The notes under the pieces: model-generated
What the model was told of the DNA's origin: nothing
Database searches by the model: none
Seen by the model: only the letters and a program-made list of their open reading frames with translations
Source: a phage
Strand: one strand, 5' to 3'
Sequence record: PZ445446.1
DNA: 64,000 nucleotides
Program-made: the position numbers and the translations under genes
Shown here: positions 8,330 through 30,312 of the stretch, in pieces
How positions within the stretch are numbered: the first letter of the stretch is position 1
Layout: each line of letters begins with the position of its first letter

Positions 8330-8718
8330 TGAAAAATATTTGGGATATCGATATCTTTGAAGCCTCTAAGCTTGATGGTGCTGATGGAGTGATTATGGTG
8401 TCTGATGGCAAGGCAACACTAACTTCTGGGGATATCATCTATGCCTTGGACGAGCTGGCGCTTCTGAAATCTACCGGTAACACTTTAGAGGAGCGTCTTC
8501 AAGGCTTCGCCTTCAAAGAAGGCACAAATACCGCCATGATGTGCACCACACGGACAGTTCAAGTTGGTAACGGTGTCTATATGATCATTGCTGTGTGTCC
8601 TAAATTCAGCAACGTCAACAAAGATGATGCTGACGCTGTCAACGATGTGGTTGTTCTCTTCGTGGGTGACGCTATGGCAGATCTGATGAATGCAGGAGAA
8701 GCAGCAAATGAAGACTGA
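8326..8718 (+). CDS. hypothetical protein
   Basis: ORF track 130 aa; ATGA overlap. Confidence 0.5.
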   Translation: MMKNIWDIDIFEASKLDGADGVIMVSDGKATLTSGDIIYALDELALLKSTGNTLEERLQGFAFKEGTNTAMMCTTRTVQVGNGVYMIIAVCPKFSNVNKDDADAVNDVVVLFVGDAMADLMNAGEAANED

Positions 8719-9010
8719 AAACATCACCCCCGCAGGGTTCTTAAAAGTATACCGTGAACTGCTATATACTACAGAGGACAGTGTTCTAGAGTATCCAGAA
8801 TATCTTTTGCTGTATAAGTATCTGCAGGAGGCTGGTGAAAATCTGCCAGTTAGTGCAGAAGGTGGTCCGAACTGGATATACAGCGCATGGAGAAAGGTTG
8901 ACATTCTCCCCGACCCAGGTAAAGATATGGTAGTTTGGCAGCTTATTAACAACATCGGGATTCCAATCTTTGATGAAGCTGTTAAAATCTATTTTGAACT
9001 TGACGATTAA
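8708..9010 (+). CDS. hypothetical protein
   Basis: Track ORF trimmed to ATG 8708 after AGGAG. Confidence 0.45.
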   Translation: MKTENITPAGFLKVYRELLYTTEDSVLEYPEYLLLYKYLQEAGENLPVSAEGGPNWIYSAWRKVDILPDPGKDMVVWQLINNIGIPIFDEAVKIYFELDD

Positions 9011-9027
9011 TATCAGGAGACCTTAAG

Positions 9028-9273
9028 ATGACTGAAGTAGTTGCTCGCGCAGGACAGAAAGTACGTTGTGTTGAAGTAGGTTTTGGTGGCAAAGGGTGTC
9101 AAAACTTGACTCAAGGTAAGGAATACGCTGTTATTTCTGGTGGTGGCGACGAAAGTATTGTGTTCGAGGGCCACATCCTGGATGCTGAAAACTTTGAAAT
9201 CTTTGACGACGATGGAGATCCGATCACCTGCCTGCTGGACGGGAATTGGGGAACTTTCGAAGTGATTGGCTAA
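9028..9273 (+). CDS. hypothetical protein
   Basis: ORF track 81 aa; AGGAGA RBS. Confidence 0.5.
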   Translation: MTEVVARAGQKVRCVEVGFGGKGCQNLTQGKEYAVISGGGDESIVFEGHILDAENFEIFDDDGDPITCLLDGNWGTFEVIG

Positions 9274-9356
9274 CAAATACCTATTGTAATTTACAGAAGG
9301 GGATGCTAAAATAGTGTCTCCTTCTATGTTGTTCAAATAAAATCGGAGATTCCATA

Positions 9357-9722
9357 ATGGAACAAATGAACGATCAAGCGTCGGTTGCGATGAACGAGCA
9401 AGAACAACCTCAAGAATTTTTCTTAGGGTTAAGTAAAGATCAAGTGTCTCTTCTGCTAGTGCTTTCTTCTTTCATGGGAAGACTTCAGGAGCTCACACAA
9501 CAGCCAGAGGCTGAACAATTATTCCAAGCTTTGCGTGAAGAAGAAAAATATCGTCGTTTGGACTATGCCTTAGGTTGGGTAGCTCAACAACGAGATATGC
9601 TGATGGCCCTCTCTGGGACCACAAGTTTTGCAATGGGCCTGCTGGCTCAAGTTCAGGACAAATTAATTCAAGCAGGGTTTGCACACACGGCAAACACTAA
9701 CGAAGAACAAGGAGACAAATAA
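9357..9722 (+). CDS. hypothetical protein
   Basis: ORF track 121 aa; GGAG RBS. Confidence 0.5.
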   Translation: MEQMNDQASVAMNEQEQPQEFFLGLSKDQVSLLLVLSSFMGRLQELTQQPEAEQLFQALREEEKYRRLDYALGWVAQQRDMLMALSGTTSFAMGLLAQVQDKLIQAGFAHTANTNEEQGDK

Positions 9723-22201: not shown

Positions 22202-22486
22202 ATGGCTATTGTCACCGTTGGCGATGTAGTGGAAATGGAAGCAAAATACTTAAAAGCGGGTATGCATATCCTACGGAATGATCAAGAATTGTTATTAACG
22301 ATGGTAGACTATAATCCCGGCCAGGATTATCCAAGCATCGACTACTTTTTTGAGTATGTTGATGAAGAATTGAAAGAGGATGAGGCTTATCAGGGTGAAT
22401 TCTGCAATTTCTTTTGCCCTGATGAGGTTGTAAAAGTTATCTATCAACCTGGAGTACCTTTCCCGCTGCACGCTATCAATAAATAA
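22202..22486 (+). CDS. hypothetical protein
   Basis: ORF track 94 aa; AGGAGTTAAAATCATG leader. Confidence 0.55.
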   Translation: MAIVTVGDVVEMEAKYLKAGMHILRNDQELLLTMVDYNPGQDYPSIDYFFEYVDEELKEDEAYQGEFCNFFCPDEVVKVIYQPGVPFPLHAINK

Positions 22487-22540
22487 ACCTGGTGGGGCCG
22501 AAAAGGCCCCAATTATGAAAATAAAGAGAGGTAAATCATC

Positions 22541-22774
22541 ATGATGGAACAAATTAAACGCGCTGAGTCTATTAATGGCAATGTGATCTATTTTGTCAGC
22601 AAAAACGAAAAAGGCGTACCATATGCGGCGGTAATAGTACAACCTGACGGCGATTATTGGTTTACTGTGTACGGCGCTTATTCTTTTGGGCGTCCGGTGC
22701 ATGATAGAATTTTGAAAGTAGCGAACCCTACCGGGAAAAATATTACAGCAGAAAAATTTTTTGAAAATAGTTGA
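22541..22774 (+). CDS. hypothetical protein
   Basis: ORF track 77 aa; AAAGAGAGGTAAATCATCATG leader. Confidence 0.55.
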   Translation: MMEQIKRAESINGNVIYFVSKNEKGVPYAAVIVQPDGDYWFTVYGAYSFGRPVHDRILKVANPTGKNITAEKFFENS

Positions 22775-22798
22775 CATGACCATATAAGACTGTAGAAT
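22771..22798 (+). promoter_or_regulatory. sigma70-like promoter candidate
   Basis: TTGACA 22771-22776, 16-bp spacer, TAGAAT. Confidence 0.45.
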
Positions 22799-22850
22799 AT
22801 AAATCAAAGGGGGCAACAAGCCCCACCAACCACAAAGAGGATAAAAAATC

Positions 22851-23030
22851 ATGGCTATTATTGCAAAGACTGAGATCGTAGGCTTAGATTCTATTCTCCT
22901 CGCATATGAGGAAGCTATAGAAATGTATGTGGTTTCCTATGGTGAATATATCCGTGAATATAAATCTATTGATCTGGCTTTTGAATGTTATATTCGCCAG
23001 GTTAATAAAGCGTACGATGATTATCGTTAA
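22851..23030 (+). CDS. small hypothetical protein (59 aa)
   Basis: Leader AAAGAGGATAAAAAATCATG after GGGGGCAACAAGCCCC hairpin; below track cutoff; read by eye. Confidence 0.4.
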   Translation: MAIIAKTEIVGLDSILLAYEEAIEMYVVSYGEYIREYKSIDLAFECYIRQVNKAYDDYR

Positions 23031-23120
23031 AATAGCTTGACAACAAACAACCATCTAACAAAGCATAATACATAAGGCGGTGGAATGGTCCGCCACCTGG
23101 AACAAGAAGAGGAAAACAAG

Positions 23121-23225
23121 ATGAAACAGAAATTAATTGATGCGGTGATCCTGGTTATTGCCCTGGGTATTGGCCTGATTGCAACCATGTCTAATATGAT
23201 CTTGTCTTCCAACGGTATCGGGTGA
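23121..23225 (+). CDS. small hydrophobic peptide (34 aa)
   Basis: Leader AAGAAGAGGAAAACAAGATG; sequence VILVIALGIGLIATM; read by eye. Confidence 0.35.
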   Translation: MKQKLIDAVILVIALGIGLIATMSNMILSSNGIG

Positions 23226-23234
23226 GGTTGGCAA

Positions 23235-23450
23235 ATGATCACTAACAAAACAGGCAAAACAGAATTTTTACGCAACTTACAGATCGGCAAGCCTGAGATC
23301 TGGTATTGCACTAAAACACCACGTGACGAAATGAAAGACTTCACCGCCACGCTGCAACGGGTAAAGATATCCATCACGCAGAAAAAGGCCTTATTAGTGG
23401 TGGAAGGTGAGATCCCCCAAACCGTTGTTATAGTTGGGCGTACAGCATAG
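23235..23450 (+). CDS. hypothetical protein
   Basis: ORF track 71 aa. Confidence 0.45.
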   Translation: MITNKTGKTEFLRNLQIGKPEIWYCTKTPRDEMKDFTATLQRVKISITQKKALLVVEGEIPQTVVIVGRTA

Positions 23451-23541
23451 TTTAATTTATACCGATACCCGAAAATTAACCAACAAAGCATAAACAGGCG
23501 GTTACCGCCGCCTTAAACGTAGCAGAAAGAGGATAGACACA

Positions 23542-23975: not shown

Positions 23976-24167
23976 ATGAATATCGAACAAGTTAGAAAGG
24001 TATTAGCAGTACTGCGTTATCATAATCATAGAAAGGTTATAGACGATCCTGATTATGTTGATTCAAGTCTGGAAGGGGATACACTGCAAGCCATAAGCAA
24101 CATGCAAGAATTGCTAAAGCGCATGACAGAGAAAAACCGACCGGACTACATAGGCGAAAAAATATAA
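23976..24167 (+). CDS. hypothetical protein
   Basis: ORF track 63 aa. Confidence 0.45.
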   Translation: MNIEQVRKVLAVLRYHNHRKVIDDPDYVDSSLEGDTLQAISNMQELLKRMTEKNRPDYIGEKI

Positions 24168-24185
24168 TCCTTATAAACTACAAAA

Positions 24186-24212
24186 CAGGGCTTGCAATGG
24201 TCCTGTTTTTTG
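24186..24212 (+). terminator. intrinsic terminator candidate
   Basis: ACAGG..CCTGT stem followed by TTTTTTG. Confidence 0.4.
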
Positions 24213-24224
24213 TTATACTTGTTT

Positions 24225-24273
24225 CACGGCAGGCACCTGGCGACGGGGGGAGACAATCACCGGGTGTGCCTGC
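24225..24273 (-). repeat. GC-rich structured element copy C (inverted relative to A/B)
   Basis: Reverse complement closely matches 15262..15300; contains GCAGGCAC/GTGCCTGC stem. Confidence 0.5.
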
Positions 24274-24295
24274 TATATAAAAATTATAAAAACCG

Positions 24296-24324
24296 TTGAC
24301 ATCTGCCAGGTGGTGGGGTAGCAT
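24296..24324 (+). promoter_or_regulatory. sigma70-like promoter candidate
   Basis: TTGACA 24296-24301, 17-bp spacer, TAGCAT. Confidence 0.4.
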
Positions 24325-24379
24325 TTATCTCGAAGGGGGCAAAAGCGCCCACACAACAACCGGAAGAGAGGAAAACGCC

Positions 24380-24652
24380 ATGTTAAGCTGGATTAACCAA
24401 GAAGTTGAATCACGTTTTAATGCTATTTGGGATCTCATCGAAAAAGAGGACGGAACATCAAGCCCTTATCTCAATAATCTTGAATTCCATTTCGTGGAAG
24501 CGATGAACGCAGAACATGATCACGAAGGTGGTGCGGATGAATTCGCTAAAGGATATGGCTTCAACAATGCCAACGAAATGATCGAGGCGGTTGTACTCCA
24601 GGCTGAGGAAGATTATCAATTAAAAACGCTTGAATTCTGCCGCCGTAAGTAA
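24380..24652 (+). CDS. hypothetical protein
   Basis: Track ORF 24296..24652 trimmed to ATG 24380 after GAAGAGAGGAAAACGCC leader. Confidence 0.5.
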   Translation: MLSWINQEVESRFNAIWDLIEKEDGTSSPYLNNLEFHFVEAMNAEHDHEGGADEFAKGYGFNNANEMIEAVVLQAEEDYQLKTLEFCRRK

Positions 24653-24712
24653 TAAGATAATGACACGGGCCAAAAGGCCCACTAATCAGAACCGCACAAA
24701 GAGGTAAACATC

Positions 24713-24976
24713 ATGAAACGTCTTGATCAGCTCAAATTAGTTCAATATATGGCTTATCGTGTTCTTGAAGTCCAGAAAGGTAGCAAAAAAGAGGTTTGCG
24801 AGAAAGCTTATAAGATCTTCACTCGCAAAAAAGATGACTGGATGCTGCGCCAGACTAAAAAGGCTGACATCTTGGGGTACCTGGAAGAAGAGATCCGCCT
24901 TGAAGAGCAAGAAGAGATCCGCCGTAGTGAGGCAGATTATCAGGCAGCTTGGGAAAACTGGATGAGCAACAAATAA
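24713..24976 (+). CDS. hypothetical protein
   Basis: ORF track 87 aa; AAAGAGGTAAACATCATG leader after GGGCC..GGCCC hairpin. Confidence 0.55.
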   Translation: MKRLDQLKLVQYMAYRVLEVQKGSKKEVCEKAYKIFTRKKDDWMLRQTKKADILGYLEEEIRLEEQEEIRRSEADYQAAWENWMSNK

Positions 24977-25042
24977 TACAACAAGTTACATGGTCAGGGG
25001 CAATAAAGCCCCTTGATCACATAAAAATTATGCTATCCCTGG

Positions 25043-25071
25043 TTGACAGGGATCGGCAGTTTTGCTATATT
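25043..25071 (+). promoter_or_regulatory. sigma70-like promoter with palindrome around -35
   Basis: TTGACA 25043-25048 inside CCCTGG..CAGGGA inverted repeat; 17-bp spacer; TATATT. Confidence 0.45.
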
Positions 25072-25120
25072 CTTTTTTGAAGGGAAGTTGTAAGAAAATT
25101 AACTAAGAGGTAAAAACACC

Positions 25121-25540
25121 ATGAACATTAAATCTAATAATCCGGCATATAGCTTTGATAACGCTTTTTGTCACGGTCCGGCGGCGAAAGGATTCGAAAT
25201 CGATGGTAAACTAATTATTGTCAATGTTGACGGGGAAGAGGTTGCAGTATATCCGGTGGCAGACGTAAAAAGCCGTTTACAATGCCGCATGGATGTTACC
25301 GCCTATCAGCTTGATCCGGTCCGCATAGTTGCCCTGGTCCTGGAAGAAGAAATTAAAGCCATGCACCATAGCAACAGATTTATTGGTGACGCGCAGGATA
25401 ATATGAAAGTATGCCGCCATAAAGTTAATGAAGTGCTTAAAGAGTACGGCTATAAAGATCTTATGATCAAACGTGAGGAAAAATTCCGCTACCGTAACGA
25501 CCTGGCAAATCGGATTTTTGAAATATACGAATCATTATAA
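25121..25540 (+). CDS. hypothetical protein
   Basis: ORF track 139 aa; last plus-strand gene before convergence zone. Confidence 0.55.
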   Translation: MNIKSNNPAYSFDNAFCHGPAAKGFEIDGKLIIVNVDGEEVAVYPVADVKSRLQCRMDVTAYQLDPVRIVALVLEEEIKAMHHSNRFIGDAQDNMKVCRHKVNEVLKEYGYKDLMIKREEKFRYRNDLANRIFEIYESL

Positions 25541-25560
25541 TTTTTTAACTGAATTATCAA

Positions 25561-25584
25561 GGGGCTTAGGCCCCTTTCTTTTTG
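25561..25584 (+). terminator. intrinsic terminator
   Basis: GGGGCTTAGGCCCC hairpin followed by TTTCTTTTTG. Confidence 0.6.
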
Positions 25585-26189
25585 TCTGCTCTTCTCCTAC
25601 CATAAACGGCCCTACCTGGCAAGTGGAATAATTGACTAGCCATCAATCCCACATACTGTACAAATATACATGGAAAATAACTATTGCATAATTTTTCATT
25701 GTGTGGTAGCAAGTCCATTTTTACCCGTTTTCTCTCCCAAAAGTGCACGTAATGCCGCTATTGCACAAATTTTAACCTGATGCACATCTCCAATATCTTG
25801 TCAACAACTAAAAATCTTTATAAGTCATACACTTACACAGCATCGAAAGCGTGTTCTACGCGAAAAATCGAGTATAACTATAGCCGCCAGATCTCAGAAT
25901 TCACGTACGCACGCCATTCTATAGCCTGCAAAGTATTTATTCCAACCACAGAATAACGGAATAGTCAATACCTGCATAAAATAATTATTCGTGTAAACTG
26001 CATAACATAAATCAGCTCAGGTGTCAACATTTTTCGTAAACAGTCCGAAATTATCACGATGAGCTATCATAAACAGAGAAATATTTAGTCGTCTAATGTT
26101 TACTGTACATTACTATACTGACTGGAATCATTAGATGACTAAGAGAAAGATAAGAAATAATTAATAATGTAATTATTTTACCTGTAACA

Positions 26190-26500
26190 ATAAGGCAACT
26201 ATGCAAACGAATGGCATGGCGCGACGGAGTCGCGACATAATATAAAAGCAGTAACCATCACCCCCGTGATAGTTTGTCTGCAAACTATTAATCAGATCAT
26301 AGTTGCCTTGTATTTAGTTAATCATGACATAACAAGCAAGGCAACTATAGATCTTCTAATAGTTGCCCTGCTTTTATATTATGTCATAGGAACGCCCGAA
26401 GGGGTGACCTAGTCACCTGGTATAGCCAGCGAAAGATTATTAACTTGTCGATTGTTATCTTGTTAATTGTTTTCATGCAAACGAATGGCATGGCTTATCA
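26190..26500. repeat. cluster of inverted and direct repeats in non-coding DNA
   Basis: AAGGCAACTAT at 26192 and 26338 with inverted ATAGTTGCC(T/C)T at 26299 and 26359; 20-bp direct repeat ATGCAAACGAATGGCATGGC at 26201 and 26475. Confidence 0.6.
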
Positions 26501-28060
26501 TCTATGCGTGAACAGTGAGGCATGCAATAGTAACAATTGTTATTGTATCCAGTGTGTTGAGTATGCCCAGTGTGTCACTATTATGTCATATTATGTCACA
26601 GTATGTCAGACAAGTTTTCCTCCTCTTTGTCAAGTGCTGCATGAAAAATTTACAAGCTTGTATGGTAGCATTTTTGCGGCCCTGTTTACATTCAGTGTTG
26701 TATGTATAATCCTTGTTGTGTGGGCGTTTAGACGTCTGGACGGTCAGAAGTTTGCAGGTCAATATCTAATCTATTGGCTGCTAACTATATCCCCCACAAA
26801 TAATAAGAAATATAATTGTTATGTGCGTAAACAGTAACCCATGTTATCAATCCCTGTATGTATCGCCAGTGGTGCGCATAATGGGTATTATGTTAAATTG
26901 CCCGTAATGATAACAGTTCTCACAATGATAGGTATTCTCATTCATCCACACAAAATAGGTTGCAAATGTTGTGCCACTGTGTGAACGGCCTGGCCTATTA
27001 ATTTCTCTCACTGCCTCGATATTTGAGAATTGTTATAAGAATGAGAAGTATTCCCATTCCGTCCGCCTGGCAGCACTCCAGTAGCTACCGGCTCCTGACA
27101 GGGCAGCACTCCTGTAGGTCAGGTCAAAATCGTGGTAGAATTGGGCCTGTTCAGATATTTCTGACTGACTCTTCAGATCTGTGTGGGAAAAGCCAACCTC
27201 TCCGGAGGGGCAGGGGAGGTCAATTAAAAAATTTACGTGGTGTATGAAGCGCTCTTCAGGTAAGGCATGTATTATGGGATGAAACCCTCTTCAGGCAATG
27301 ATATTTGTGGGTGTGATATTTGCTGGAAAGCCAGATATGACGGGACTCCCGGCGGGGATGGGGTAGTACAGACAGGGAAAATATGGGGATGTAGTTGGGT
27401 AAATTGATCAGACAGGTAGAGTATGGAATATGTTACAAGTATGTTAAATAGGGAGGATGAATATCTGCAGGATTTGTGTGTAAAATCAAAGACTTAAGTG
27501 GTGTTGTGGTATTTTCTATAAATAATTCAAGTTTAATAGGTAATATTTGTCTCTATCCACTTTGTGTGGTAAACAGATTCAGATGAAATTGGTTTACAAG
27601 TGTATACATAATATACAAATTAAAGATACAAGAAACCCCCCTCCCCCTTCGGCTACCATTCACCTTTTCCTCTGACTGGTACTTAAACACTTATTCAGAC
27701 TCTTCAGGTTATCACCCATATATCATATGGCAGTGACTGGTGTCCTCCGGCCCCTCTTTCGTCACCCGTCCGCTTCGCCATGCTAATGCCATAGCCAATG
27801 GTTCGGTTGTTCACTCTGTTCACTCAGGTGTATCTCCATACCCCTTCAAACCGAAGAGAACAGAAAACCCGAATTACTCGGTAAAAGAAAAGAGAAGAAC
27901 TTAATTTTATCAGGATAGGCAAGAATGTCAAGGCATGACTGCTCACTAAACAAGCAAACAGTCATGTGTGGAAGGTAAGTGATTGTGGTGGTGGGAAATT
28001 TAGTTGAAAGATGTGTTATAGGTGCGCTTCCAGCACTTTGGCCGGGCAGCTAATTGTGTG

Positions 28061-28276
28061 TCAGTCCAGCGGTTCATCCTCTACTTCACTGAAATCAATG
28101 TTCATGGTCTCCTCCCAACCATCGATCTCAGCACAAGAGTGGAGTTCTTTAGGGTTTACTCCCAAAGCCTCAGCAACAGAGTCTATATTTAACACCTCTG
28201 GCAGGTATGATTCATCGAATTCAAGGTAAATCAGGCCACGAGTGTTGTCAGCTCCACCAAATATCTCTATCTTCAT
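28061..28276 (-). CDS. small acidic protein
   Basis: ORF track 71 aa; GAGGAG RBS; starts MKIEI; D/E-rich. Confidence 0.5.
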   Translation of the reverse strand: MKIEIFGGADNTRGLIYLEFDESYLPEVLNIDSVAEALGVNPKELHSCAEIDGWEETMNIDFSEVEDEPLD

Positions 28277-28397
28277 GAAATCTCCTCTGGAAATGAGAGT
28301 GTGAACAGGGTTTTATACGTTCTAATGCACAGGAATTATACACGTTTGCCTCTTCAGGCCATGCTTTAGCATGAGGAACCTGTGTGGGCTCGGTGCT

Positions 28398-28610
28398 TCA
28401 TAGTCTACCACCTCTGAACTCTTCGTGCTCAGGCATAATAGAGAACCAGATATCTACGATGTCCTCCCACGTCAGGTCATCAGCCTCAGGATCTGTCTGG
28501 GACGAAGATGAAGAGTCCTCAGAATCTAAGTTTTCCTCTTTAACTGGCTCATCCAAGGGACATATGGTCACTCCTTCGGATGTCTCTTCAGATGCATGTG
28601 TGTTGATCAT
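28398..28610 (-). CDS. small highly acidic protein
   Basis: ORF track 70 aa; strongly D/E/S-rich. Confidence 0.45.
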   Translation of the reverse strand: MINTHASEETSEGVTICPLDEPVKEENLDSEDSSSSSQTDPEADDLTWEDIVDIWFSIMPEHEEFRGGRL

Positions 28611-28970
28611 GTTCCCCCCGTGAGTATTCCGGCAACAGCCGCTATGGAAGTAATGATCATCAGGATCACCACTAAAACTTCAGACAATGTTCTCATTGTA
28701 TATTCCATATTCTCCAAACTGTGTGTGGATACTATCACGGGAGCGGTAATGTGTCAACAGCAACGCCGCGAGGGTTTGGTTAAAATCCGAGCGTATGGTG
28801 ATTTGGGTCAAAACGGACGTGCGTTCTCGCTACGCTCGAAAGAGAGACTTGTTTGTAGAAAGCTCTTAAACGCTCTGTAACGAGATTATCTGTCCAAGGT
28901 ATGCAATCGTGCACCAGATAAAGAAAAGGACGCCACAGAGCGTCCTAGGTGTCTTAAATTTGATATTTTG

Positions 28971-29282
28971 CTATACCCATGAGGGCTTATCAAGGTTGGA
29001 GTAGCTGAAAGGTGTCAAAAGGTGACTGTCAAAATCCCTCAAACTATCCAAATCTTTTTCCTCGTCCTGACACCATCTGTGCCTACATTTATTGTTGTAG
29101 TGCATAGAATGCATAGCGTTCTGCAACTTAACAGGTACAAGTGATTCAGGAGTAGATAGTATTGTTGGGTATGCCAGAATCACCTCAAACAGTGGAAACA
29201 CATCGAAACTAAAGTCTATCTCTGCAGAGGTTGATGGCATATAGGAGTATTTAGCCGCCTTTGTAGACATAATCCACCTCAC
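28971..29282 (-). CDS. hypothetical protein
   Basis: ORF track 103 aa; start uncertain. Confidence 0.35.
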   Translation of the reverse strand: MRWIMSTKAAKYSYMPSTSAEIDFSFDVFPLFEVILAYPTILSTPESLVPVKLQNAMHSMHYNNKCRHRWCQDEEKDLDSLRDFDSHLLTPFSYSNLDKPSWV

Positions 29283-29605
29283 ACAGGTTTGATAATACCT
29301 TTACCGAATAATTCTTCGTATCTAATCTTATCCGGATCCCACTCTTGGATAATTTCGAAGACAATATCCAACCCAGGGATAATCACTTCTCCAGTGTCAA
29401 GTTTGGCAAGAACAAAACCAGAAGGCTGAATGGTTTCCCAGTTGCGCCGATTGGAATAGAAGACCTCGAAAATATCGCCGACCTTTATCTGTTGATCAAG
29501 ATGTTCAAGATTCTCTTTCATATAGACGCAGCGGATTTTTCGTGCAGGCCAGAGACCACCTGCATCACGTTCATTTAGCTCTTTTACAGTAATCGGTATA
29601 CCCAT
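29279..29605 (-). CDS. hypothetical protein
   Basis: ORF track 108 aa. Confidence 0.5.
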   Translation of the reverse strand: MGIPITVKELNERDAGGLWPARKIRCVYMKENLEHLDQQIKVGDIFEVFYSNRRNWETIQPSGFVLAKLDTGEVIIPGLDIVFEIIQEWDPDKIRYEELFGKGIIKPV

Positions 29606-29626
29606 CTCAAATCTCCTTCATAGATA

Positions 29627-29653
29627 GTAAAAAGAGGGGCCCAAGCCCCCCTC
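29627..29653 (-). terminator. intrinsic terminator candidate (minus strand)
   Basis: GAGGGGGGCTTGGGCCCCTC hairpin followed by TTTTT on minus strand. Confidence 0.45.
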
Positions 29654-29660
29654 TTTGTCA

Positions 29661-29966
29661 TTATTCTACAGAGCGTTTGAACAGAATGTCTGCCTCAGAC
29701 ATGTGCTCAACCTCTTCTTCGATTTTAGCGCGACGTTTTTCAGCCTCATAGCGAATATCGAACTCGGTAGCCACCAGAGATTTGATGAATTTAGGAGAAT
29801 ACAGGTGATCCTGCTTCTCAACGAGAATGATATCCTTAATGGCATCTTTCAGATCTTTAATCTGAAGTTGGAGTTCTACCAGTTCTTCGATTGTTTTGCG
29901 AAGGCGATCACGCTCTGCAGTGTCAGAAGGAAGAGAGGTGAACAGTTCAACTTTAGATTTAGCCAT
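29661..29966 (-). CDS. hypothetical coiled-coil protein
   Basis: ORF track 101 aa. Confidence 0.5.
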   Translation of the reverse strand: MAKSKVELFTSLPSDTAERDRLRKTIEELVELQLQIKDLKDAIKDIILVEKQDHLYSPKFIKSLVATEFDIRYEAEKRRAKIEEEVEHMSEADILFKRSVE

Positions 29967-29994
29967 AGTAAGAGTCTCCTTATGTTGTTTTAAA

Positions 29995-30312
29995 TTAACG
30001 TTCTACAAAAATACCGTTCAGTTCAATAACCAGGAATTTCTGGTCTTCACTATCGTCTCGTGCCAGCACCTCACAGACGTATCGGTCATCCCCATCATCA
30101 TCGCAGTCAAATACAAGACTGAGGACTTTATCATGGTAAACCTTCGCCACTACCGCCTCGTAAGTATTGCCGATTGTGAATCCAAGATAATCTCCGATGC
30201 ATTTGACAACAACATGGTCTCCAGCATTTAAGTCAATCTTCGTCATTACTGCGCTCCTTGGGTAATAATACTGTATGTAAAACTTTAACCAGAGATGTGA
30301 ATAACGCCCCAA
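29995..30312 (-). CDS. hypothetical protein
   Basis: ORF track 105 aa. Confidence 0.5.
   Translation of the reverse strand: MGRYSHLWLKFYIQYYYPRSAVMTKIDLNAGDHVVVKCIGDYLGFTIGNTYEAVVAKVYHDKVLSLVFDCDDDGDDRYVCEVLARDDSEDQKFLVIELNGIFVER

Follow-up and report, generated by a model that had tools for sequence, protein, structure and literature searches.

Dunn & Studier in 1983 and Chung, Nardone & Hinkle in 1990 reportedly described, for phage T7, the SRL and SRR arrays of short repeats and a hairpin intermediate for duplication of the terminal repeat. At the concatemer junctions of T7 and T3, RNA polymerase pauses and thereby starts maturation and packaging, and the terminal repeat of T3 is followed by the host-polymerase promoters A0-A3 and by phiOL (PMC3276506). 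Within the subfamily Vequintavirinae, Klebsiella phage KPP-1 (genus Mydovirus) has a 514-bp direct terminal repeat (DTR) at 116,316-116,829, for which twofold coverage and PhageTerm gave T7-type packaging (PMC9862379), and terminal repeats of 458/459 bp have been reported for the genus Vequintavirus (PMC7471380, PMC6563267). The authors of the Gotham genome described a terminal repeat and one packaging start sequence in all virions, and contrasted this with permuted phages, which have no region of twofold coverage (PMC7471380). In the rV5 paper, a grey box "labeled non-coding", free of open reading frames (ORFs), was drawn without explanation between converging transcription units; bidirectional terminators were expected in this box but none were found, and a skew change was noted at the same coordinates (PMC3606486). 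Our literature search found no explicit treatment of this non-coding zone or its junction in Vequintavirinae. Here we analyze the corresponding gene-free zone in a 64,000-nt stretch of phage DNA (sequence record PZ445446.1, hereafter "the window"), and propose, with a probability of roughly 0.85, that it is the physical-end region, or concatemer junction, of a phage with a short DTR and fixed linear ends.

When compared to phage records, the zone (25590-28360) yielded 121 matches, nearly all of them in Vequintavirus, with 90-97% identity along most of the zone. Judged by this similarity, the window is from a Vequintavirus, an rV5-like coliphage of Escherichia coli, which we take to be a myovirus of ~137 kb. 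The original prediction, made from the letters of the window alone, had described about 2.5 kb with no convincing ORF between convergent gene blocks, and had listed a terminus, a packaging site, an origin, or a set of non-coding RNA or protein-binding sites as possible functions. We delimited this gene-free zone to 25541-28060 (2.52 kb). Plus-strand genes lie to its left, the last at 25121-25540, and minus-strand genes to its right, where that block ends with the gene at 28061-28276, so that the zone lies between the far ends of two transcription units that converge on it. Conservation was evaluated across 15 Vequintavirus genomes aligned over 25000-28700.

The terminal repeat and its edges

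The identification of the repeat comes from the ends of related sequence records. The Gotham and EdH4 records begin at the equivalent of window position 27067, run leftward and finish at 26609, and in each the same 459 bp are repeated exactly at the two ends, where the Gotham record annotates them as a repeat_region. Their terminal bases (GACAAGTTTT... and ...CCGTCCGCC) are the same in the window at 26609 and 27067 except for one substitution at the 11th base, and the window repeat is 96-97% identical to those of EdH4, HdK5, and Gotham over 459 bp, with the first and last 10 bases at each edge identical. For HdK5, ECP2309, Pr121LW, bov10K2, bov11CS3, and bov25_3, the record is likewise opened precisely at one of the two edge positions. 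In a search with the 459 bp alone, the repeat matched record positions 1-459 of HdK5, EdH4, ECP2309, Pr121LW, bov11CS3, and bov25_3, with HdK5 and ECP2309 containing two copies each, one of them at these first positions, while the bov10K2 record begins at 27067 and finishes at 27068 and is thus linearised at the same cut with a single copy. The repeat is 91-99% identical among the 15 compared genomes, and its length varies only between 457 and 460 bp across these genomes and the full-length matches listed from a wider search.

These record ends strongly support the centre of the zone, 26609-27067, as the DTR of virion DNA, and with it the "terminus" among the functions first listed for this region. 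The DTR is found only once in the window because the assembly was circularised through it, and, being in single copy in a circularly assembled sequence, it had gone unseen in the original prediction. The left-edge box is a candidate terminase recognition and cleavage signal, while on the right GTCCGYCTRGCA has its sole exact match in the window at 27061. The EdH4, HdK5, and Gotham papers (PMC6563267, PMC7471380) concern the same sequence as here and give the repeat length only; they make no link to the rV5 "non-coding" box, and the flanking arrays, hairpin cluster, motifs, and promoter presented below are not described in them.

The KPP-1 repeat likewise lies in a gene-free convergent junction, of ~1.8 kb, with only two very small annotated coding sequences (CDS). 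It aligns to the window repeat in reverse orientation, and both of its edges fall at the homologous base of the window edges: the KPP-1 DTR begins AACACAATTCTCTCTCCTTGTCAAG and ends ...GCTGTCCGTC, for which the window counterparts are GACAAGTTTTCCTCCTCTTTGTCAAG and ...CCGTCCGCC. The two junctions also have in common the CCTCTTCAGG motif, a perfect long inverted repeat beside the DTR, and an A+T-rich stretch. They differ in that nucleotide similarity is patchy, reaching at best 75% over 53 nt, and in that the counterpart of the window right flank is shorter in KPP-1 (~335 bp); tblastx of the flanks revealed no flanking genes common to both. Two independent end determinations thus fall on homologous bases in sequences that are only patchily similar, which argues for sequence-specific cutting at conserved sites. 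From these two cut sites conserved across genera we infer the "packaging site" of the original prediction.

Both edge boxes are also kept in a divergent metagenomic clade (L010, L023, L025, and others). A metagenome scan for the box GTTCAC.CTGTTCACTCAG returned 30 matches, 11 of which were relatives, adding one intermediate sequence (L051). The remaining 19 had no similarity beyond the pattern itself and are at chance level for a collection of this size. In L010, an HNH endonuclease gene (8716-9486; PF13392, E = 1.6e-18) interrupts the gene-free zone between the two conserved islands, which shows a site where the zone tolerates insertions; L045 probably lacks this insertion, given its window-like island spacing.

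If the zone is a DTR junction, virion DNA would be linear, starting at 26609 and ending at 27067 in window orientation, so that 26609-27067 would be present at both ends, while the repeat would be single in replicating concatemers and in circularised assemblies, with ~1 kb of gene-free DNA on each side. On concatemers, the terminase would recognise the edge boxes GACAAG...TTGTCAAG and GATATTTG...GTCCGCC and cut at ...TGTCA^GACAAG... and ...GTCCGCC^TGGCAG..., and the repeat would be duplicated during packaging, as in T7. The edge arrays, the co-varying hairpin cluster, the CTCTTCAG/GATATTTG motifs, and the conserved promoter may then be accessory cis-elements for end processing and/or replication initiation. 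A more specific proposal, in which a myovirus dependent on host RNA polymerase follows a T7-like logic, the flanks are active machinery and not spacer, and the promoter at 27931-27904 (with its CU-rich leader and hairpins), the 97-100% conserved right-flank block with CTCTTCAG/GTGAACAG, and the hairpin cluster jointly duplicate the repeat and/or prime end replication, is speculative, and we consider it rather doubtful.

By analogy, this junction may work like a T7-type junction, without any claim to membership of the T7 family. As at the T7/T3 junction, a short fixed terminal repeat has variable short-repeat arrays directly outside it (here on both sides), a strong inverted repeat is found a few hundred bp in from the right end, and a host-type promoter lies near the left end. 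Unlike in T7, the repeat is ~3 times longer, the flanks reach ~1 kb each, the flanking genes are transcribed towards the ends and not away from them, and the window zone has no sequence similarity to T7. We know of no phage RNA polymerase for this myovirus.

The repeat is affected by two peculiarities of individual records. In Shigella phage CM1 (MK962749), the equivalent of 26544-27067 includes two left-edge boxes and a ~560-bp duplication that comprises the terminal repeat, and I29 is similar; the duplication may be real or may have arisen as an artefact when the repeat was assembled. In a group of Danish wastewater records (navn, L001 4301-4336, corresponding to ~26890-26925 in the window; naswa, nomo, magaca, and pangalan), a 36-bp "repeat_region" is annotated inside the terminal repeat, and may be an assembly overlap mark.

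Flanking elements of the proposed junction

Features of the gene-free zone are listed in Table 1.

Table 1. Coordinates and characteristics of the features identified in and around the gene-free zone (window positions; a dot indicates no strand).
Feature	Position	Strand	Characteristics
Intrinsic terminator	25559..25577	+	7-bp G+C-rich stem followed by a T-run; closes the plus-strand gene block
A+T-rich gene-free spacer	25590..26184	.	GC 0.35-0.37; 86-98% conserved; right-end side of virion DNA
Nested inverted-repeat (hairpin/cruciform) cluster	26185..26390	.	Four AAGGCAACTAT copies and an 18-bp perfect inverted repeat
20-bp direct repeat ATGCAAACGAATGGCATGGC, first copy	26201..26220	+	Brackets the hairpin cluster; an equivalent pair brackets the cluster in L010
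20-bp direct repeat ATGCAAACGAATGGCATGGC, second copy	26475..26494	+	Conserved in 15/15 genomes
Hypervariable short-repeat array	26495..26608	+	GTRAACAGT-type, then TATGTCA-type units; abuts the left edge of the DTR
Direct terminal repeat, 459 bp	26609..27067	.	Record ends and annotated repeats of relatives
Left-edge box GACAAGTTTTCCTCCTCTTTGTCAAG	26609..26634	+	Cut between 26608 and 26609; invariant in 15 genomes
Right-edge box GATATTTG...GTCCGCC	27018..27067	+	Cut between 27067 and 27068; edge invariant in 15 genomes
Variable unit GGCAGCACTCCWGTAG	27069..27117	+	Two copies here; immediately outside the right edge of the DTR
Conserved motif island	27160..27375	+	CTCTTCAG at 27169, 27252, 27287; GATATTTG at 27300, 27315; ACGGGACTCC
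Most conserved block of the zone	27600..27950	-	97-100% identical in 15 genomes; conserved at least as well as the flanking genes
Hairpin CCGAGTAATTCGG, then U-rich run	27869..27881	-	~20-45 nt downstream of the predicted start
Predicted sigma-70-type promoter TTGACA-16-TGaTAAAAT	27904..27931	-	11/12 matches plus TG; leftward, towards the DTR
Strong hairpin	27935..27968	-	Between the last minus-strand gene and the promoter; -19.1 kcal/mol, z = -6.0
Outlying CTCTTCAGG copy	28350..28358	+	Intergenic space between the first two minus-strand genes

On the left, the terminator hairpin that closes the plus-strand block has a counterpart annotated as a terminator in Murica and EdH4. Low GC (0.35-0.37) extends across 25500-26500 and adjoins direct and inverted repeats, an anatomy that is unspecific to origins; the A+T-rich spacer could be a DNA-unwinding region, and A+T-rich stretches are also found beside the hairpin cluster in L010 and KPP-1. 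Within this cluster, three of the four AAGGCAACTAT/ATAGTTGCCTT inverted repeats that had been noted from the sequence are exact (26192 on the plus strand, 26299 on the minus strand, and 26338 on the plus strand), and the minus-strand copy at 26359 has one mismatch (AGGGCAACTAT). Their number is well above shuffled expectation: allowing up to one mismatch, the whole window has 8 matches vs. 1.45 expected, and none of 100 shuffles reached 8. The 18-bp perfect inverted repeat, formed by 26234-26251 and 26368-26385, had been overlooked. As a whole, 26180-26395 folds at -78.4 kcal/mol vs. -42.5 kcal/mol for shuffles (z = -8.7). The cluster includes a plus-strand terminator-like hairpin (26334-26373) followed by TTTTATATT, which is annotated as a terminator in Murica, and a minus-strand terminator-like hairpin (26274-26253); these two hairpins could provide the bidirectional termination expected by the rV5 authors.

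The outer stem of the cluster differs in sequence between the window (GACATAATATAAAAGCAG), L010 (GACATAATAACGCTGAG), and KPP-1 (AGCGACACAATAACACGGGAG), yet in all three it pairs perfectly with its partner arm, so that across three clades it is the pairing that is kept and not the sequence. Among the Vequintavirus genomes, the cluster is invariant in 13 of 14 and deleted in FV3 (JQ031132). The 20-bp direct repeat that brackets it is exact at both of the positions first reported, 26201 and 26475, and in FV3 a precise 274-bp deletion between the two copies (equivalent to 26221-26494) removes the whole cluster. This deletion could represent natural slippage or a cloning or assembly artefact of the palindrome.

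Between the second direct repeat and the DTR, the left array is made of imperfect units of ~10-16 nt, ending in 3.5 TATGTCA-type units with a 10-bp period (TGTCATATTA; TRF), the last base of which is exactly 26608. The earlier mention of TATGTCA repeats holds locally only: the window count is at chance (11 vs. 10.4 expected), but 5 copies are clustered in 26325-26608. Among the 15 genomes, the array varies from 113 to 220 bp and from 1 to 8 GTRAAY units, with an identity of 0.60-0.74 and many indels, and always ends ...TGTCA^G. A similar variability is observed on the other side of the DTR, where the 16-nt unit GGCAGCRCTCCWGTAG occurs once, twice (as in the window), or is replaced by another insert in relatives (identity 0.64-0.74 with indels). 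The least conserved and most indel-rich segments of the zone, 26400-26600 and 27050-27150, are located directly outside the two DTR edges.

Further right, the motif island is 75-80% conserved in the divergent clade (L010/L023/L025), and both CCTCTTCAGG and CTTCAGAT.TGTGTG are also present in KPP-1; its conservation is probably that of protein-binding rather than coding DNA. The 9-mer CTCTTCAGG, originally counted five times on the plus strand, has exact copies at 27252, 27287, 27700, and 28350, and the sequence at 27169 is CTCTTCAGA. It occurs 6 times in the whole window vs. 0.36 expected (0 of 100 shuffles), and the 8-mer CTCTTCAG 11 times vs. 2.4 expected, including 6 copies, all on the plus strand, in 27169-28591. 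The TCTGACTG...GACTCTTCAG unit is present twice, at 27160 and 27672, as first described. A role of CTCTTCAG as a genome-wide promoter element was ruled out, as copies outside the zone sit in genes and their spacing to a -10 element is inconsistent. TGTGTGG is found 23 times in the window vs. 9.0 expected, with 8 copies (7 on the plus strand) in 25700-28728, several of them shortly after CTCTTCAG.

The block at 27600-27950 contains CTCTTCAGG at 27700 and a tandem pair of TGTTCACTC at 27808-27825 (GTGAACAG on the minus strand). Between clades, its conservation is block-wise with indels, and its ORFs are not conserved at the protein level. The promoter predicted in this block has no gene downstream, and at the same place most sequences of the divergent clade have TTGCAA-17-TG(c/a)TATAAT, one variant lacking the TG. 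The hairpin that follows may terminate or attenuate a very short CU-rich transcript, which might be a genuine phage small RNA; in the divergent clade, CCAGAA...TTCTGG takes the place of the hairpin stem. The divergent-clade counterpart of the strong hairpin behind the promoter likewise has a different sequence and still folds (-11.6 kcal/mol, z = -4.4).

Alternative readings of the zone

Among the alternatives, a replication origin, instead of or besides the termini, survives best, and we regard it as possible but not probable. It would comprise an A+T-rich unwinding region (25950-26180), binding-site repeats, hairpins, and the gene-less promoter, which would supply a primer or an activating transcript, and it may coexist with the termini. 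Promoter-dependent phage origins include T4 oriF/oriG, the T7 secondary origins phiOL/phiOR, and the lambda oop/ori region. As in these, a strong gene-less promoter is found near A+T-rich DNA and repeats; unlike in these, the promoter here is separated from the repeat by ~830 bp and from the A+T-rich stretch by ~1.7 kb. Beyond the low GC and the conserved promoter, the bracketing of the hairpin cluster by direct repeats and the clustering of GTRAACAG, for which 7 of 9 window copies fall in 26036-28308, are consistent with an origin, as are three perfect DnaA boxes (TGTGGATAA) within 50 bp in the repeat-equivalent of L010 (7839-7886), which have no counterpart in the window. In the window itself there is no DnaA-box cluster (TTWTNCACA has 6 matches vs. 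8.35 expected, one of them in the zone), no initiator gene adjoins the zone, and FV3 does without the hairpin cluster. The skew change noted in the zone by the rV5 authors would also fit an origin, but coincides with the switch of transcription direction.

A non-coding RNA locus appears unlikely. It would produce a ~40-nt CU-rich small RNA from the promoter at 27931-27904 on the minus strand, ending at the hairpin and U-run at 27881-27860, or else a longer structured RNA that spans 27600-27900 or covers the hairpin cluster. The promoter persists in a clade of only ~75% identity, the first hairpin keeps its pairing there with a different sequence, and 5 of 23 predicted pairs in the two-clade alignment changed on both sides and still pair. 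With only two clades, however, each such "compensation" is a single event, in a pyrimidine/purine-rich sequence that pairs promiscuously. The 97-100% conservation of 27600-27950 and the strong fold of 26180-26395 would also be expected of structured RNA, but the inverted repeats of the latter fold equally well as DNA, and a 299-nt minus-strand RNA reaches only z = -0.87. The covariance scans suggested with the original prediction gave no family: Rfam 15 models had no match in 24000-30000 at E<=1, and ARAGORN detected no transfer RNA (tRNA) or transfer-messenger RNA (tmRNA) in the whole window.

It is highly improbable that small protein genes have been missed at 26475-26837 (120 aa), 26841-26984 (47 aa), and 27267-27407 (46 aa). 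CDS have been annotated in the zone in PMBT16, MiataMamis, CM1, Murica, WM, and others, but GenBank records range from 0 to ~15 CDS and are mutually inconsistent. In line with the initial impression of a zone with no convincing ORF, none of its ORFs showed third-position bias across the 14 compared genomes, and most were interrupted in relatives; substitutions at codon positions 1/2/3 were 9/14/78 and 11/5/58 in the flanking genes. Comparison of the eight longest ORFs to Pfam and PHROGs yielded nothing above threshold. The longest ORF (26445/26475-26837, 120-130 aa), called a "putative membrane protein" in one annotation that starts at 26475, extends across the hypervariable array and remains open in 1 of 14 genomes. 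The Cys-rich ORF at 27267-27407 owes its coding look to synonymous codon changes vs. L010 and is also intact in 1 of 14, a 1-nt insertion breaking the frame in all divergent-clade sequences although the nucleotides are conserved. The hydrophobic ORF at 26841-26984 is a partial exception in that it is intact in 13 of 14 genomes, with codon-position substitutions of 21/25/49, and has 9 of 21 residues in common with a KPP-1 ORF. It was rejected as a gene nonetheless: it has no ribosome-binding site, reads ATG-TAA in L010, and diverges completely from the KPP-1 ORF after these 21 residues. Two smaller candidates were also discarded, namely a minus-strand ORF at 27704-27823 (39 aa), in which conservation between clades stops after the first 7 codons, and the "structural protein" APCEc02_065 (a 44-aa ORF in the zone, L021 3122-3256), which is unconserved and for which its paper gives no mass-spectrometry support.

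Several observations weigh against the zone being a DTR junction. The termini of the window phage are transferred from relatives 92-97% identical in the repeat, most GenBank records are linearised elsewhere than at the DTR edges, and the leader that follows the promoter shows no unusual stability (75-nt leaders, z = -1.2 and -0.5). FV3 is without the hairpin cluster, which means either that this cluster is dispensable or that the record has a cloning or assembly deletion, and the roles proposed for the arrays, motifs, and promoter are drawn from position, conservation, and analogy. Two PhageTerm-based reports class vequintaviruses as "circular permutated" (bov phages) or headful (BpE1AUH) (PMC8407724, PMC13211470). 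A headful (pac) start region of a circularly permuted genome, with the apparent repeat an assembly or annotation convention, is nonetheless very unlikely, because these reports are outweighed by the base-exact agreement of ends among several independent groups and two genera, together with the single packaging start reported for all Gotham virions and the homologous, coverage-supported T7-type edges of KPP-1. Some library preparations blunt end signals.

Implications for Vequintavirus genomes and neighbouring observations

The core of this explanation is already in the literature in scattered form, as the "non-coding" box of 2013 and the 458/459-bp repeats of 2019-2020. Added here are the link between box and repeat, the exact cut sites and their cross-genus conservation, the hypervariable arrays at both edges, the co-varying hairpin cluster, and the conserved promoter facing the repeat. 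A DTR junction would explain a 2.5-kb box that has been left unexplained or filled with spurious tiny CDS in >100 Vequintavirus records since 2013, and the two cut sites provide exact linearisation bases for Vequintavirus genomes. These could be used for uniform annotation and genome-length reporting, as the repeat is usually collapsed or, in CM1, duplicated; for rebooting or engineering candidate therapeutic phages from synthetic DNA, where the ends must be correct; and for judging packaging mode, hence transduction risk. Being conserved across Vequintavirinae genera, the cut sites and flank architecture also represent defined cis-elements with which to study short-repeat formation in a large myovirus.

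Three further observations concern the surroundings of the zone and its matches. The bordering gene at 25121-25540 (139 aa, no Pfam match) is accessory, being missing from 8 of the 14 compared Vequintavirus genomes. Two minus-strand ORFs, at 22295-22852 (185 aa) and 23027-23491 (154 aa), lie inside the otherwise plus-strand block, neither with a Pfam match. Finally, 18-19 "Campylobacter phage" entries (MG0656xx, e.g., MG065646.1), with C. jejuni given as the host, share 94-96% identity with this coliphage genus over the zone, and are probably mislabelled or contaminant assemblies.

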